Shown here: piece by piece, positions 25,027-37,862 of the stretch
Position numbering within the stretch: the stretch's first letter is position 1
Layout: every line of letters begins with the position of its first letter
Sequence record: ON528721
Source: Shigella phage ESh8
Strand: one strand, 5' to 3'
DNA length: 38,701 nt
Notes under the pieces: generated by a model
Told to the model about the DNA's origin: nothing
The model's database searches: none
Seen by the model: only the letters and a program-made list of their open reading frames with translations
Translations under genes and position numbers: made by a program

Positions 25027-25959
25027 ATGGCTGAATCTAATGCAGACGTTTATGCGTCCTTCGGTGTGAACAACGCGGTAATGACCGGAAGCACACCTAC
25101 TGAACACGAACAAAATATGCTGAGTCTCGATGTTGCTGCCCGTGATGGCGATGATGCAATCGTGCTTAGCGAGGAACCGAGTTCTCATGACGATGACCCT
25201 TATGCGGCTGGTGAAGACCCATTCGCTGACGGTGAGGACGATGAGGGCCGCATTCAGGTTCGTATCAGTGAAGATGGTAACGAAGCCGAGTTCGACACTG
25301 GTAGCGATAACGCTGAGGTTGAGACAGAAGGTGAGGCCGCTGAGTTTGAGCCGCTGGGTGACACTCCAGAAGAACTGAGCCAAGTGACTGAACAATTAGG
25401 ACAGCACGAAGAAGGCTTTCAGGCGATGGTCGAGCAGGCCGTTGAGCGTGGACTGAGCGCAGAGTCGGTGACTCGCATCTACGAAGAGTACGAAGCCGAT
25501 GGCATCTCTGAGAAATCCTATGCGGAACTCGAAGCTGCTGGATATAGCCGTGCCTTTGTGGACTCCTACATCTCCGGTCAGGAAGCCCTTGTAGACCAGT
25601 ACGTCAATCAGGTAGTTGCCTTTGCTGGTGGTAAGGAACGCTTTAGCGCAATCCATACGCACCTTGAAGCAACCAACCCGGCTGCGGCTGAGTCCCTTGA
25701 GACTGCCATGATGAACCGAGACTTGGCGACTGTCAAAGCAATTATCAATCTGGCTGGTGAGAGTTACACGAAGAAATTCGGTAAGCCCGCCAACCGTAGT
25801 GTTACCAAGCGTGCTACTCCGGTTAAACCTGTAGCTCGCCAGAAAGAGGGCTTTACGAATCAGGCTGAGATGATTAAAGCTATGAGTGACCCGCGTTACC
25901 GTAGCGATGCTGCCTACCGTCAAATGGTAGAACAGAAGGTTATCGACTCCAGTTTCTAA
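25027..25959 (+). CDS. 9: Capsid assembly (scaffolding) protein gp9, 310 aa
   Basis: Very acidic, 310 aa (T7 gp9 307 aa); position before major capsid gene. Confidence 0.9.
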   Translation: MAESNADVYASFGVNNAVMTGSTPTEHEQNMLSLDVAARDGDDAIVLSEEPSSHDDDPYAAGEDPFADGEDDEGRIQVRISEDGNEAEFDTGSDNAEVETEGEAAEFEPLGDTPEELSQVTEQLGQHEEGFQAMVEQAVERGLSAESVTRIYEEYEADGISEKSYAELEAAGYSRAFVDSYISGQEALVDQYVNQVVAFAGGKERFSAIHTHLEATNPAAAESLETAMMNRDLATVKAIINLAGESYTKKFGKPANRSVTKRATPVKPVARQKEGFTNQAEMIKAMSDPRYRSDAAYRQMVEQKVIDSSF

Positions 25960-25980
25960 TTAACCCTCACTAAAGGGAGA
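25958..25980 (+). promoter_or_regulatory. T3-type phage RNAP promoter (phi10), AATTAACCCTCACTAAAGGGAGA
   Basis: Perfect consensus; followed by long leader with TAAGGAGAT RBS for capsid gene. Confidence 0.95.
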
Positions 25981-26115
25981 GACCATAGATGCCTACAATG
26001 GTTGAATCACCTGAGCACAGAACTTTGTGGTCGCTCCCGTAGGTGAAACATTGAGAACCAACTCGATTCAAGTAGTAACCAAACTTTTCTTTAAATTAAC
26101 ATAAGGAGATTCAAC

Positions 26116-27159
26116 ATGGCTAACATTCAAGGCGGACAGCAAATTGGTACTAATCAGGGTAAGGGTCAGTCCGCAGCGGACAAATTGGCGCTGTTCCTGA
26201 AAGTGTTCGGCGGTGAAGTCCTGACTGCTTTCGCTCGCACCTCCGTGACCATGCCTCGTCACATGCTGCGCTCTATTGCTTCCGGTAAGTCCGCACAGTT
26301 CCCTGTGATTGGTCGCACCAAAGCCGCTTACCTGAAACCGGGTGAGAACCTCGATGACAAACGTAAGGATATCAAACACACCGAGAAGGTAATCCACATT
26401 GATGGCCTGCTGACTGCGGACGTTCTGATTTACGACATTGAGGACGCAATGAACCACTACGACGTTCGCGCTGAGTACACCGCTCAGTTGGGTGAATCTC
26501 TGGCGATGGCGGCTGACGGTGCTGTACTGGCTGAACTGGCTGGTCTGGTTAACCTGCCGGACGCATCCAATGAGAACATCGAGGGTCTCGGTAAGCCTAC
26601 CGTACTGACTCTGGTTAAGCCTACCACTGGCGACCTGACTGACCCGGTTGAGCTGGGTAAATCGATTATCGCTCAGTTGACTATCGCTCGTGCGTCTCTG
26701 ACCAAGAACTACGTTCCGGCTGCTGACCGTACCTTCTACACCACTCCTGATAACTACTCTGCGATTCTGGCCGCTCTGATGCCGAACGCTGCAAACTATC
26801 AGGCACTGATTGACCCTGAGCGTGGTACTATCCGTAACGTGATGGGCTTCGAAGTGGTTGAGGTTCCGCACCTGACCGCTGGTGGCGCTGGTGATACCCG
26901 TGAGGATTCCCCGGCTGACCAGAAGCACGCTTTCCCGGCGACTTCCAGCACTACCGTTAAGGTTGCTCTGGATAACGTTGTGGGCCTGTTCCAGCACCGC
27001 TCTGCGGTTGGTACGGTCAAGCTGAAAGACTTGGCTCTGGAGCGCGCTCGTCGTGCGAACTATCAGGCTGACCAGATTATCGCTAAGTACGCGATGGGCC
27101 ACGGCGGTCTGCGTCCAGAAGCTGCTGGCGCTATCGTGCTCCCAAAGGTGTCGGAGTAA
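26116..27159 (+). CDS. 10A: Major capsid protein 10A, 347 aa
   Basis: MANIQGGQQIGTNQGKG... and ...IAKYAMGHGGLRPEAAGA match T7 10A throughout. Confidence 0.98.
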   Translation: MANIQGGQQIGTNQGKGQSAADKLALFLKVFGGEVLTAFARTSVTMPRHMLRSIASGKSAQFPVIGRTKAAYLKPGENLDDKRKDIKHTEKVIHIDGLLTADVLIYDIEDAMNHYDVRAEYTAQLGESLAMAADGAVLAELAGLVNLPDASNENIEGLGKPTVLTLVKPTTGDLTDPVELGKSIIAQLTIARASLTKNYVPAADRTFYTTPDNYSAILAALMPNAANYQALIDPERGTIRNVMGFEVVEVPHLTAGGAGDTREDSPADQKHAFPATSSTTVKVALDNVVGLFQHRSAVGTVKLKDLALERARRANYQADQIIAKYAMGHGGLRPEAAGAIVLPKVSE

Positions 27160-27431
27160 TTCCCGACCCCACTGGAGTTACTCTTAGTCAGAAGACTATG
27201 AGCTTAGTCGTTGGGGCTTCTAAAGCCCTGACTGCTACGGTAACTCCGGCTGATGCAGTACAGACAGTGACCTTTACGTCTTCCGATGCGAAGATTGCTA
27301 CGGTCGATGCCTCTGGTACTGTAACTGCTGTGGGCGCTGGCTCCGCTGACATCACTGCTACTACTGTGAATGGCCTGACGGCTGTCTGCAAGGTCACTGT
27401 GAAAGCAGTAGAGCCTCCCGTAGAAGGCTAA
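27147..27431 (+). CDS. 10B: Minor capsid protein 10B C-terminal extension, reached by -1 ribosomal frameshift at slippery heptamer C_CCA_AAG (27141..27147); 94 aa extension with Ig-like (Big_2-like) domain
   Basis: X_XXY_YYZ slippery site in 10A frame 4 codons before 10A stop; -1 frame open to 27431; extension has TATVTPADA...VTFTSSDAKIATVDASGTVTAVGAGSADITATTVNGLTAVCKVTV pattern. Confidence 0.75.
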   Translation, partial: GVGVIPDPTGVTLSQKTMSLVVGASKALTATVTPADAVQTVTFTSSDAKIATVDASGTVTAVGAGSADITATTVNGLTAVCKVTVKAVEPPVEG

Positions 27432-27470
27432 GGTCTTTACCGGGGATTTACTTTCCTTCATTACTTTATG

Positions 27471-27512
27471 AACCCCTTGGGTGCCCTCTGAGGGTATCTG
27501 AGGGGTTTTTTG
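27471..27512 (+). terminator. Late terminator (Tphi-like) hairpin plus U-tract
   Basis: AACCCCTTGGGTGCCCTCTGAGGGTATCTGAGGGGTTTTTTG, very similar to T7 Tphi. Confidence 0.85.
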
Positions 27513-27513
27513 C

Positions 27514-27536
27514 TTTAAACCCTCACTAACAGGAGG
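27514..27536 (+). promoter_or_regulatory. Phage RNAP promoter directly after terminator, TTTAAACCCTCACTAACAGGAGG
   Basis: Core CCCTCACTAACAGGAG; its downstream AGGAGG doubles as RBS for gene 11. Confidence 0.7.
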
Positions 27537-27543
27537 TAACACC

Positions 27544-28134
27544 ATGCGCTCTTATGAGATGAACATTGAGACCGCAGAAGAGCTATCAGCCGTCAACGAC
27601 ATTCTGGCTTCCATCGGTGAGCCACCAGTATCAACCCTTGAGGGTGATGCGAATGCTGACGTTGCGAATGCTCGACGTGTACTCAATAAGATTAACCGAC
27701 AGATTCAATCACGAGGATGGACATTCAATATTGAGGAAGGTGTGACCCTTCTACCGGATGCGTTCTCTGGTATGATTCCATTTAGCTCTGACTACCTGTC
27801 CGTAATGGCAACCAGCGGTCAGACCCAATATGTCAACCGTGGTGGCTATCTCTATGACCGCTCTGCGAAGACCGACAGATTCCCTTCTGGTGTTCAGGTC
27901 AACCTGATTCGTCTGAGAGAGTTCGATGAGATGCCTGAGTGCTTCCGTAACTACATCGTCACCAAGGCTTCACGCCAGTTCAACAACCGATTCTTCGGTG
28001 CGCCGGAGGTAGACGGAGTGTTGCAGGAAGAAGAGCAGGAAGCGTGGCGTGCGTGCTTCGAGTACGAACTAGACTACGGCAACTACAACATGCTGGACGG
28101 TGACGCATTCACCTCTGGTCTACTTAACCGCTAA
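27544..28134 (+). CDS. 11: Tail tubular protein A gp11, 196 aa
   Basis: 196 aa, same as T7 gp11; position. Confidence 0.95.
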
Positions 28135-33881: not shown

Positions 33882-33899
33882 CAGTGATAAGGAGGCTCC

Positions 33900-36800
33900 A
33901 TGAGCTACGATAAGAACAAACCTAGCGAGTTCGATGGGTTATTTCAAAAAGCGGCAGACAAACATGGGGTCTCCTATGACCTGCTTCGTAAATTAGCATT
34001 CAATGAGTCCAGCTTCAATCCAAAGGCCAAATCACCAACTGGCCCGAAGGGTCTCATGCAGTTCACCAAGGGTACAGCCACTGCGCTTGGCCTAAAGGTT
34101 ACTGACGATGATGACGATGACCGTTACAACCCTGAGTTGGCTGTGGATGCAGCCGCTCGTCACCTGAGTGACCTCATTCGGAAGTACGATGGGGATGAAC
34201 TCAAAGCTGCCTTGGCGTATAATCAGGGCGAGGGGCGCAACGGTGCTCCACAGATACAGGCTTATGACAAAGGTGATTGGGCTTCAATCTCTGAGGAAGG
34301 TCGTAACTATATGCGTAACCTGATGGACGTAGCCAACAGTCCTCGCAAGGGGGACTTGGAGGCGTTCGGCGGTATCACCCCAAAGGCTAAGGGCATTCCA
34401 TCGGGGGATGCATTTGCTGGAATCGGGAAGAAGCAGACGGTAGGAACCGACCTGCCGGAGTCAACTGGATTCAAAGTGGAGGGTAAAGAGCAGAAAGCAC
34501 CTAACGTGCCTTATGCTAAGGACTTTTGGGAAAAGACTGGAACAACACTGGACGAGTTTAACTCACGCTCTACCTTCTTCGGAATTGGAGATGCAACAAG
34601 TGCGGAGCTTCACAACTCTGTACTTGGAGTTGCTTTCCGTGCAGCCCGTAGCGACGATGGTTTTGATTTGTTCAAGGACACCATTACGCCTACCCGTTGG
34701 AATAGCCATACGTGGACTCCAGAAGAGCTAGAGCGAATCCGTAAGGAAGTGAAGAACCCCGCGTACATCAACGTAGTCACTGGAGGCTCTCCTGAGAATC
34801 TGGACGCCCTCATTAAGATGGCGAATGACAACTACGAGATGGACGCACGGTCTGCCGATGCTGGTGTTGGTGCCAAACTTACTGCTGGTATCGTCGGTGC
34901 TGGTGTAGACCCGCTGAGTTACGTGCCGCTAGTAGGCGTAGCCGGGAAGGGTCTCAAGGTGGTTAACAAGGCTTTCATTGTGGGTACTCAAAGTGCTGGC
35001 CTCGCTGTTGCCTCTGAGGGTCTCCGTACATCAATCGCTGGTGGAGAAGCCCACTATGCTGATGCTGCTTTAGGTGGTCTGATGTTCGGTGCCGGGATGA
35101 GCGCAATCAGTGACGCTATCGCTGCTGGTATTCGCCGTTCCCGTGGGACTGAGGTTGTTAATGACTTCGCTCCTATGGCACACCGCTTGGAAGCCCGTGA
35201 GACCGCTCTGAACTCTGGTGGGGAAGACCTGACCCGTATGCCTAGCGAGAACCGTGTGTTCGACCGTGAGCACGCTGGCGTTGAGTATTCACCTCTGGAG
35301 ACCGAGCCGGGTGCCGTTGTGTTACCTCAAGGTCAAATCCTGAGCGACACCAACCCACTTAACCCTCAGACTCTTAGCGAGTTCGAGGCGGTCAACCCTG
35401 AGCGTGCCGCTCGTGGTATCTCTTTGGGTGGTTTCACTGAGATTGGCTTGAAGACTCTCCGCTCTGAGAACCAGACTGTTCGCTCCATTGCGAGTGACCT
35501 TGTGCGTTCTCCGACAGGGATGGAATCAGGCTCTAACGGTAAGTTCGGTGCGACTGCTTCTGACATTAAGGAGCGGCTCCACGCGAACAATCAGCGCACC
35601 TACAATCAGCTTTATGATGCTGTGCGTACTGCAATGAAAGACCCTGAGTTCTCCACGGGTGGGGCCACAATGAGCCGTAAGGAAATCCGACAGGAAATCT
35701 ACAAGCGTGCAGCCTTGGCGATTGAGCGACCTGAGCTTCAAGCAAACCTGACAAAGGGTGAGCGGAACGTGATGAAAATCCTCAAGCAGCACTTTGACCT
35801 CAAACGTGAAATCATGGAGAACCCGTCAATCTTCGGCAACACCAAGGCGGTCAGTATCTTCCCCGGCTCACGCCACAAGGGAACCTACGTGCCAAACGTG
35901 TACGACCGAGCTATCAAGATTGAGATGGTTAAGCGTTACGGTAATGATGGCTTGCAGCGAGCAATCGCGGAGTCATGGTTGACGTCTTATCGTGCTCGTC
36001 CAGAAGTCAAGGCGAGGGTCGATGAGTACCTGATGGAACTTAACGGTCTCAAATCCGTGCAGGAAGTTACGCCTGAGATGGTGCAGAAGCACGCGATGGA
36101 CAAGGCGTATGGTATTTCACACACTGACCAGTTCTCTGCCTCCTCTGTCATTGAGGATAACATTGAGGGTCTGGTGGGTATCGAGAACAACAACTTCTTG
36201 GAAGCCCGTAACATGTTCGACAGTGACATGGCGGTGACTCTCCCTGATGGTAACACGTTCTCTGTGAATGACCTGCGTACCTATGACATGGCTGAAATTC
36301 TGCCTGCATACGACCGACGAGTAGATGGTGATGTTGCAATCATGGGTGGTTCCGGTAAGACTACCAAAGACCTGAAAGATGAAATCATGGCGCTGGATAA
36401 GCAGTCAGAGGGCAACGGCACATTGAAAGGTGAAGTGGAAGCCCTCAAGGACACCGTGAAGATTCTGACTGGTCGTGCCCGTAGGAACCCGGAAGGCGCT
36501 TGGGGTACAGCCCTGCGCTCCGTCAATGACCTCACGTTCTTTGCTAAGAACGCCTATATGGGCGCACAGAACGTTACTGAAATCGCTGGTATGCTGGCGA
36601 AAGGTAACGTCTCTGCGATAACTCACGGAATACCCATGATTAACGATTGGGTCAACCGTGGTAAACCGCTTCGTGCCTCTGAGATTAAGGAGCTACACGG
36701 GATGGTGTTCGGTAAGGAACTAGACCAACTAATCCGTCCGGGACGTGAAGACCACGTGCGCCGACTCCGGGAGTCTACGGACACCAGCGCTGCGGTTGCC

Positions 36801-37862
36801 AATGTGGTCGGTACGATTCGTTTCGGTACTCAAGAGTTGGCTGCACGCTCTCCTTGGACAATGCTCCTGAACGGAACATCAAACTACATTCTTGATGCTG
36901 CCCGTCAGGGTGTGCTTGGGGATGTGGCTGGAGCGGCCCTTGCTGGGAAAGCCTCTAAGTTCGGTAAGGCAAACTACCTTAAGTCTGCCTCTATCAGCCC
37001 TGAGCAGTGGAATGGAATCAAGCAGTTGTTCAGAGACCATGCGACTCGTGGAGAAGACGGTAAGTTCACCATTCGTGACAAACAGGCTTTCGCTAACGAC
37101 CCTCGTTCAATGGACTTGTGGCGACTGGCCGACAAGGTGGCGGATGAGACTATACTGCGCCCTCACAAGGTTTCCTCACAGGACTCCAAAGCGTTCGGTG
37201 CAGGGGTGAAGATGGTGATGCAGTTTAAGAACTTCGTCATCAAGTCCCTTAACTCCCGGTTCGTCCGTAGCTTCTACGAGGCAACGAAGAACAACCGTGC
37301 GTTAGACCAAGCGTTGACTCACATCATCTCCTTGGGTCTAGCTGGTGGTTACTACGTTGGGCAGGCGCACCTTAAGGCTGCGAGTCTACAGGAGCACAAA
37401 CGTAAGGAGTACCTTAAGAACGCCCTTGACCCTAAGATGATTGCTCATGCGTCAATCTCTCGTAGTTCACACTTAGGCTCGCCAGTGAGTATCTACGACA
37501 TGTTCGCTGGGATGGTTGGTAGCGATACCTATAAGTACACCCGCTCTACGGTACTCCCTAAAGAGTCCGAGAAGCGTGACCCTACCAAGGCAGTGACAGG
37601 TAGACAGGTGGCTTCAACTATCGCAGGTGCAGTTGGTGAGCAGGTTCCGGGTTTAGGTTTTGTTGGCTCTGTGGGTGCAACAGCTATTAACGCCGCTTCC
37701 CTGCTGTCTTCTCCAAACAAGGCTACCGCTCTGGAGTTCCGTACAGGACTCTTCAACACCTCTCGTGAGTTGATTCCTAATGACCCGCTATCGCAGCAAC
37801 TCATTATGAAAATCTACGAGGCCAACGGTATCCGCGTAAAGGAGACGCCGAAGAAACAATAA
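33900..37862 (+). CDS. 16: Internal virion (core) protein D gp16 with N-terminal lytic transglycosylase domain, 1320 aa
   Basis: 1320 aa (T7 gp16 1318 aa); N-terminal SLT-like motifs LAFNESSFNP...GLMQF. Confidence 0.95.
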   Translation: MSYDKNKPSEFDGLFQKAADKHGVSYDLLRKLAFNESSFNPKAKSPTGPKGLMQFTKGTATALGLKVTDDDDDDRYNPELAVDAAARHLSDLIRKYDGDELKAALAYNQGEGRNGAPQIQAYDKGDWASISEEGRNYMRNLMDVANSPRKGDLEAFGGITPKAKGIPSGDAFAGIGKKQTVGTDLPESTGFKVEGKEQKAPNVPYAKDFWEKTGTTLDEFNSRSTFFGIGDATSAELHNSVLGVAFRAARSDDGFDLFKDTITPTRWNSHTWTPEELERIRKEVKNPAYINVVTGGSPENLDALIKMANDNYEMDARSADAGVGAKLTAGIVGAGVDPLSYVPLVGVAGKGLKVVNKAFIVGTQSAGLAVASEGLRTSIAGGEAHYADAALGGLMFGAGMSAISDAIAAGIRRSRGTEVVNDFAPMAHRLEARETALNSGGEDLTRMPSENRVFDREHAGVEYSPLETEPGAVVLPQGQILSDTNPLNPQTLSEFEAVNPERAARGISLGGFTEIGLKTLRSENQTVRSIASDLVRSPTGMESGSNGKFGATASDIKERLHANNQRTYNQLYDAVRTAMKDPEFSTGGATMSRKEIRQEIYKRAALAIERPELQANLTKGERNVMKILKQHFDLKREIMENPSIFGNTKAVSIFPGSRHKGTYVPNVYDRAIKIEMVKRYGNDGLQRAIAESWLTSYRARPEVKARVDEYLMELNGLKSVQEVTPEMVQKHAMDKAYGISHTDQFSASSVIEDNIEGLVGIENNNFLEARNMFDSDMAVTLPDGNTFSVNDLRTYDMAEILPAYDRRVDGDVAIMGGSGKTTKDLKDEIMALDKQSEGNGTLKGEVEALKDTVKILTGRARRNPEGAWGTALRSVNDLTFFAKNAYMGAQNVTEIAGMLAKGNVSAITHGIPMINDWVNRGKPLRASEIKELHGMVFGKELDQLIRPGREDHVRRLRESTDTSAAVANVVGTIRFGTQELAARSPWTMLLNGTSNYILDAARQGVLGDVAGAALAGKASKFGKANYLKSASISPEQWNGIKQLFRDHATRGEDGKFTIRDKQAFANDPRSMDLWRLADKVADETILRPHKVSSQDSKAFGAGVKMVMQFKNFVIKSLNSRFVRSFYEATKNNRALDQALTHIISLGLAGGYYVGQAHLKAASLQEHKRKEYLKNALDPKMIAHASISRSSHLGSPVSIYDMFAGMVGSDTYKYTRSTVLPKESEKRDPTKAVTGRQVASTIAGAVGEQVPGLGFVGSVGATAINAASLLSSPNKATALEFRTGLFNTSRELIPNDPLSQQLIMKIYEANGIRVKETPKKQ

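Follow-up and report, generated by a model that had tools for sequence, protein, structure and literature searches.

The window analyzed here, which is the whole stretch of DNA of 38.7 kb from Shigella phage ESh8, represents a complete genome of a T7-family phage of the T3 type. Over the first 25 kb, it aligns with Shigella phage ESh9, Klebsiella phage KP13MC5-2, Serratia phage HMGUsm2 and others at approximately 95–97% identity and 92–95% coverage, and the region of gene 10 shows 96–98.6% identity to about 40 phages (Autographiviridae, Studiervirinae, Teetrevirus). Judged by these alignments, the window is a Teetrevirus genome, with an overall identity of approximately 96% to other genomes of this genus. 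The gene 10 locus comprises the following features, all of which lie on the plus strand:

25958..25980, plus strand: T3-type late promoter phi10, which drives gene 10 (AATTAACCCTCACTAAAGGGAGA, by direct sequence reading)
26116..27159, plus strand: gene 10A, major capsid protein by standard decoding (ORF, 347 aa, predicted 36,956 Da)
27141..27147, plus strand: slippery heptamer C_CCA_AAG, its first C being codon position 3 of 10A (CTC CCA AAG)
27147..27197, plus strand: linker GVGVIPDPTGVTLSQKT from the capsid body to the first Met of the -1 ORF, translated by frameshift only
27147..27431, plus strand: -1-frame part of 10B, 94 codons plus TAA (dN/dS approximately 0.2 between alleles)
27153..27184, plus strand: predicted stem-loop, candidate stimulator (11 bp, 27153-27163 pairing with 27174-27184, 5 nt after the heptamer)
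27171..27392, plus strand: Big_2 bacterial Ig-like domain, PF02368, residues 11-84 of the 96-aa -1 product
27470..27508, plus strand: Tphi rho-independent terminator hairpin, 38 nt past the 10B stop

At the position homologous to phi10, a promoter is annotated in the records of T3 and phiYeO3-12. The 10A protein matches the Pfam family Gp10A-like with an E-value of 5.6e-111, and its closest solved relatives are the T7-family capsids 7y23 (E 1e-179) and 2xvr (E 5e-171). Its start codon is preceded by a strong Shine-Dalgarno pairing of -9.3 kcal/mol. At the other end of the locus, Tphi of ESh8 can be aligned to the Tphi annotated in the T3 and phiYeO3-12 records. It also contains the CCCC of the terminator, which in T7 is reported to be involved in a long-range effect on frameshifting (PMC5009743).

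The original prediction placed a heptamer fitting the X_XXY_YYZ rule in the 10A frame four codons before the stop, and both register and coordinates proved correct: AAG is followed by GTG TCG GAG TAA, with the 10A stop codon at 27157-27159. Only two heptamers of the X_XXY_YYZ type, C_CCA_AAG included, occur in register within the 347 codons of 10A. The bare CCCAAAG is present in eight copies in the window compared to 4.5 expected, which is no enrichment, and among the three other copies on the plus strand one (34379) is found in slippery register, where the -1 frame closes after three codons. As the bare heptamer is not rare, the heptamer by itself provides no evidence; what is non-random is the combination of register, position, long open frame and conservation. 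In Escherichia coli, C_CC.A_AA.G was measured as the top -1 heptamer, with a shift of about 0.3% when present alone and of up to 54% in combination with a strong pseudoknot, and A_AA.G is the best tetramer for a -1 shift (PMC4066793). T3 and phiYeO3-12 are described in the paper on Kvp1 to shift "at lysyl residues" (PMC2579914). A full-text literature search on 'C_CCA_AAG' returned primer sequences only.

Between 26121 and 27084 the -1 frame is interrupted by 35 stop codons, corresponding to approximately one per nine codons. Only past 27084, where the heptamer lies, is it open, running through 114 stop-free codons (27087-27428) to the TAA at 27429-27431. Translation in this frame from 27141 yields 96 sense codons, i.e., the re-paired Pro-Lys plus 94, followed by the TAA. 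This is the open frame of 94 codons past the shift that had been foreseen, and the expectation that it ends just before Tphi holds as well, with 38 nt separating the 10B stop from the terminator. The frameshift product 10B is described by join(26116..27147, 27147..27431); it would comprise 438 aa with a predicted mass of 45,667 Da, in agreement with the earlier estimate of about 46 kDa. The flagged feature is confirmed in the sequence, and the site is that of the gene 10 -1 frameshift of the T3 type.

The extension had been suggested to resemble bacterial Ig-like domains of the Big_2 type, and the profile search bears this out. Against PF02368 it gives an E-value of 1.1e-15 and a score of 57.8 bits (gathering cut-off 22.8), covering profile positions 3-78 of 79. 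It furthermore matches Big_2-type domains in solved structures, for example that of a short tail fibre from a phage (9cuy, E 9e-11) and that of a surface protein (7z47). AlphaFold2, run with the single sequence of the 96-aa extension, returned seven strands at low confidence (mean pLDDT 46.9, pTM 0.36); because this model is of low confidence, the assignment of the Ig fold is based on sequence homology.

Conservation of the arrangement was assessed in 66 loci fetched by the C-terminal half of 10A, to which T3, phiYeO3-12, Patroon and phiYe-F10 were added. CCCAAAG is found in register in all nine of the T3-like loci with a Big_2 extension (9/9) and likewise in T3, phiYeO3-12 and Patroon. In one locus (L008) a deletion of 15 nt directly after the heptamer leaves the -1 relationship intact, and the 10A stop codon TGA follows right after AAG. 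The T7-like loci keep the G_GTT_TTC of T7, and the Pseudomonas relatives share the A_AAG core only (C_GAA_AAG, C_GCA_AAG, A_GAA_AAG). Two diverged Big_2 alleles exist, each in frame with the slip site: the window-type allele, which is also present in about 37–40 database phages, and the T3-type allele, to which it shows approximately 68% amino-acid identity. vB_YenP_AP5 has an ORF of 41 aa only, and Citrobacter phage SH1 is described as being without the extension (PMC4925675). Other modules were observed at the same place: one T3-like locus has a T7-type tail, many T7-like loci encode a domain of about 90 aa that is beta-rich and unclassified, and Pseudomonas relatives have a Big_2 domain plus a GDSL/SGNH esterase appended in the -1 frame.

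The closest characterized systems are T3 (NC_003298, T3p39) and phiYeO3-12 (AJ251805), in which gene 10 is orthologous and 10B is entered in the records as the product of a -1 frameshift at the identical site. The slip region ...GTGCTCCCAAAGGTGTCGGAGTAATTCCCGACCCCACTGGAGTTAC... is identical over at least 60 nt around the site, ESh8 shares the -1 frame and the linker PKGVGVIPDPTGVTLSQKTM with both phages, and Tphi follows. The extension of phiYeO3-12 is a Big_2 domain too (E 1.3e-10); the T3-type Big_2 is the other allele than that of ESh8, with approximately 68% amino-acid identity (T7M match). The DNA similarity of ESh8 to T3 and phiYeO3-12 is lost from about 27181-27205 and is regained at Tphi, the extension measures 94 codons in ESh8 compared to 89 in the T3 type, and the distance from the 10B stop to Tphi is 38 nt compared to approximately 160 nt in T3 and phiYeO3-12. 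Condreay, Wright and Molineux reportedly published a study on bacteriophage T3 gp10B in 1989. The record of Klebsiella phage Patroon (MK608335) contains a joined CDS with the same join, 'major capsid protein, Frame shift product', and this phage has the same heptamer and the same Big_2 allele as ESh8 (96/96 positions align, with a few substitutions). Patroon and ESh8 share approximately 97% nucleotide identity and, although the 10A of Patroon is two codons longer, its mechanism is no different.

In T7 itself, a -1 shift close to the 3' end of its orthologous capsid gene likewise results in a minor capsid protein displayed to the outside. The frameshift of T7 gene 10A/10B is said to have been the subject of work by Condron, Atkins and Gesteland in 1991. 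The slip site of T7 is G_GUU_UUC rather than C_CCA_AAG, and the T7 10B tail of about 41–53 aa is short, rich in Lys/Ala and non-Ig and contains no Pfam domain; the 10B of ESh8 is not of this type, the features of which occur in the T7-like loci instead. That frameshifting adds Ig-like domains to capsid proteins, as the original prediction noted, is on record for the coat protein of T3 itself: through a -1 frameshift, the T3 major coat protein is extended by an Ig-like part, and its T7 counterpart is not Ig-like (Atkins et al., PMC5009743), and the T3 case is stated again elsewhere (PMC13320782). In Lactobacillus phage A2 and the Listeria phages A118/A500/PSA, frameshifting adds a C-terminal Ig-like domain to a fraction of the capsid or tail subunits (PMC5009743). 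These phages differ from ESh8 in belonging to unrelated capsid lineages, in using other slip sites and, in some of them, in a +1 shift. Frameshift-appended Ig-like domains on phage structural proteins were reportedly treated by Fraser et al. in 2006. Hoc of phage T4 is similar in that it exposes Ig-like domains on the capsid which are proposed to bind glycans weakly; it differs in that it is a separate decoration protein with several Ig domains and does not extend the major capsid protein by frameshifting.

Downstream of 27147, where a stimulatory RNA structure had been proposed to be sought, RNAfold predicts the hairpin listed above at a spacing of 5 nt. The hairpin alone (42 nt) folds with -14.0 kcal/mol and a stretch of 53 nt with -18.2 kcal/mol at a z-score of -3.15; in longer contexts RNAfold prefers competing structures. 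At the same position a hairpin is predicted in the relatives, with 8 bp in the T3 type and 5 + 4 bp in the Pseudomonas type. In an alignment of six distinct sequences, 93% of the cells pair compared to 30–47% with the partner slid, and one pair is changed on both sides, from A-U to C-G. Covariation among these six sequences is not significant, as 75–121 of 500 shuffles do as well, and in L008 the 5' arm of the hairpin is entirely absent. A scan of 25900-27700 against Rfam at E-values of up to 1 yielded a chance snoRNA match only and no frameshift element. From these folding predictions, a role of the hairpin as frameshift stimulator appears plausible.

Taken as a whole, the sequence comparisons point to the programmed -1 ribosomal frameshift of gene 10A/10B of the T3-like phages, a reading to which we assign a probability of roughly 0.88. 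A frameshift leading to an Ig-like 10B is already known and is the established reading, and the original prediction was right in this respect. Most ribosomes translating the late gene 10 mRNA would pass C_CCA_AAG and stop four codons on, resulting in the 347-aa 10A. A minority would slip back by one base, with tRNA-Pro in the P site (CCA to CCC) and tRNA-Lys in the A site (AAG to AAA) moving in tandem, upon which GGT at 27147-27149 would be decoded next and 94 more codons would be translated in the -1 frame to give the minor capsid protein 10B of 438 aa. 10B would then be composed of residues 1-344 of 10A, a Gly/Val/Pro linker of eight residues, one Big_2 domain and a short Pro-rich tail. We infer that the shift really occurs in ESh8, and the same applies to its rate. 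The C-terminus of the T7-family capsid proteins faces outward, which is the basis of T7 display; therefore, 10B co-assembled with 10A would expose Ig-like domains on the capsid surface.

The Big_2 ORF might instead be an independent small gene encoding 77 aa (27198-27431) from its own ATG. An ATG is indeed present at 27198, and numerous GenBank records call a separate CDS at this place ('structural protein with Ig domain', 'hypothetical protein', 'minor capsid protein 10B'), but these calls appear to be automatic annotation. ATG 27198 is the sole start codon in the -1 frame past the upstream stop: between the stop at 27084 and this ATG, the frame contains no ATG, GTG or TTG. Its Shine-Dalgarno pairing amounts to -1.0 kcal/mol, whereas 10A reaches -9.3 kcal/mol, gene 11 reaches -11.6 and the 28 long ORFs have a median of -8.85, and 80% of the ATGs in the window pair with the Shine-Dalgarno sequence as well as ATG 27198 or better. 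The Big_2 match begins nine residues before this Met, so that an independent product would miss the first strand. The -1 ORF thus has neither a start of its own with a ribosome-binding site nor a complete domain behind it. Moreover, strong purifying selection acts in the -1 frame on the 17 linker codons that precede the ATG: compared with the Pseudomonas Pifdecavirus phages they show 9.5 synonymous and 1.5 non-synonymous differences, the protein being kept while third positions diverged (KGVGVIPDPTGVTLSQKT compared to KGVSV-PDPTGVTLSQKT in Pseudomonas Pifdecavirus). The linker has no start codon and yet evolves like coding sequence, and it is therefore reached from the capsid frame. In all cases, furthermore, the ORF runs across the capsid stop in the -1 frame, beside a conserved A_AAG. 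An independent gene is hence very improbable.

Even less probable is that the -1 ORF constitutes a decaying relic, with slippage at background level and a functionless extension. This notion could draw on the fact that 10B of T7 is dispensable. It could also draw on close relatives which lack the extension, such as Citrobacter phage SH1 (PMC4925675), or retain the 41-aa ORF only (vB_YenP_AP5), and on the stimulator being a candidate only, with covariation that is not significant. Against it, the 94 codons are intact in a frame which elsewhere has a stop about every nine codons, no T3-like locus with a Big_2 extension deviates from the heptamer, and both diverged Big_2 alleles are in frame with the slip site. 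The extension also evolves under constraint, with dN/dS or pN/pS of about 0.2–0.35: for the whole extension, dN/dS is approximately 0.2 between the window-type and the T3-type allele, and the window-type allele by itself gives a pN/pS of 0.35 in the -1 frame compared to 0.87 and 4.05 in the other two. Slippage of the phage RNA polymerase at CCCAAA, instead of tRNA slippage on the ribosome, would lead to the same end protein, and formally the sequence alone does not tell the two routes apart. The homopolymer runs at the site are only 3 nt long, however, and transcriptional slippage needs runs much longer than 3 nt. The motif is also an exact match to the ribosomal X_XXY_YYZ rule and the best -1 motif of E. 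coli, and distant relatives keep only A_AAG, the best ribosomal tetramer (PMC4066793), which makes transcriptional slippage the least probable of the three. Readthrough of the 10A stop codon was ruled out, as the Big_2 domain is encoded in the -1 frame and not in the 0 frame.

The frameshift reading makes ESh8 one more instance of a textbook recoding event and leaves the current understanding unchanged. The Big_2 domain may allow the phage to adhere weakly to the glycans of mucus or cell surfaces. Display of an Ig-like domain is proposed to prolong the stay of phages on surfaces rich in glycans, a property that bears on phage therapy and on capsid display with T3-like phages. Barr et al. reportedly put forward a model of bacteriophage adherence to mucus in 2013. 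From the sequence comparison, the extension looks like a cassette exchanged between conserved flanks, with variation in sequence rather than in kind. More tentatively, and at somewhat less than even odds, the slip site plus linker on the left and Tphi on the right might form a fixed docking cassette, by which Studiervirinae swap capsid-display modules through recombination. If this were true, frameshift-controlled capsid display would be a general, exchangeable module of host adaptation and not a peculiarity of T3 and T7, and the module would include the display of enzymes on the capsid.

For the annotation of the window, the ORF of 77 aa called as 'hypothetical protein' or 'structural protein with Ig domain' should be recorded as the C-terminal portion of 10B, with the join placed at 27147. 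The peptide GVGVIPDPTGVTLSQK, which is coded upstream of ATG 27198, is unique to the frameshift product.

Comparison of the window with the gene 10 loci of T3 (L078) and phage phiYeO3-12 (L003) revealed that the Big_2 cassette and the untranslated stretch 3' of it are substituted relative to both phages as one block, which is bounded by the conserved linker and the conserved terminator Tphi. In T3, approximately 160 nt separate the 10B stop codon from Tphi, while in the window this distance is 38 nt. The substituted block and two further sites of the window are:

Window 27181-27470: block-replaced segment, compared with L078 (T3) 1960-2353 and with phiYeO3-12
Window 27205-27236: strong local hairpin (UAGUCGUUGGGGCUUCUAAAGCCCUGACUGCUA) inside the Big_2 coding region
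Window 34379-34385: second in-register C_CCA_AAG, within a 1323-aa ORF (33891-37862)

The hairpin at 27205-27236 governs the RNAfold predictions when longer contexts are folded, and in the T3-type allele the majority of its stem bases are replaced. At the second C_CCA_AAG the -1 frame closes three codons past the heptamer, so that slippage at this site could merely truncate the protein.

Variation at the slip site, in the linker and in the appended domain was found among the relatives at the following loci:

L008 1194-1452: T3-type metagenomic variant with a 15-nt deletion
L055 334-541: T3-like 10A with a T7-type -1 tail
L070 1498-2925 (Pseudomonas phage vB_PpuP-Maksa, PP496429), also L071-L076: -1-frame ORF of the capsid gene with Big_2 and a GDSL/SGNH hydrolase
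L013-L015, L018, L020, L029-L037, L039, L041, L052 and L058, ~1780-2067 per locus: 87-90-aa beta-rich -1 extension

In the metagenomic variant L008, the 15 nt immediately 3' of CCCAAAG are deleted. With them the predicted stimulatory hairpin loses its 5' arm and the linker becomes five residues shorter, and the 10A stop codon (TGA) now follows the slip codon directly. Despite this deletion, the -1 frame leading into Big_2 is intact. The 10A protein of L055 is T3-like, with a C-terminal half that is 96% identical, its slip site is degraded to G_CCA_AAG and its -1 extension is a Lys/Ala-rich tail of the T7 type (...LTPQQKAAITRARNKALKSQ); L055 appears to be a mosaic of a T3 capsid body and a T7 tail.

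In the Pseudomonas Pifdecavirus phages, the -1-frame ORF of the capsid gene extends over 474 aa counted from the slip site and encodes, behind the same linker as in the window, both Big_2 (E 1.9e-11) and a hydrolase domain of the GDSL/SGNH type (Lipase_GDSL_2, E 2.3e-9). Just the A_AAG core of the slip site is retained, as C_GAA_AAG, C_GCA_AAG or A_GAA_AAG. This arrangement would present an esterase on the capsid via frameshifting. For phage P421, an SGNH domain was recorded in a "minor capsid protein", and frameshifting is nowhere mentioned in that paper (PMC9003214). Pseudomonas phage Phi-S1 (JX173487; L071 1500-1504, identical to L072) carries GGGGG where its relatives have GGGG, and owing to the extra G the ORF for Big_2 and SGNH lies in frame 0 instead of the -1 frame, downstream of the TAA that ends the capsid gene. 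A homopolymer sequencing error is the most likely cause; otherwise, a genuine GGGGG would imply a change to stop-codon readthrough.

Many T7-like phages, whose slip site is the T7 G_GTT_TTC, carry the beta-rich extension of 87-90 aa (e.g., ...SLKVDFPELSDVTDWSLLEVTTPDGVSYSRRTNSLYFKATSGVEGLVIVGYDGSPVRSFNVSFTN) in place of the short T7 tail. It had no significant match in Pfam, with Big_3 on top at E 0.016, and it may represent an unclassified Ig-like display domain.
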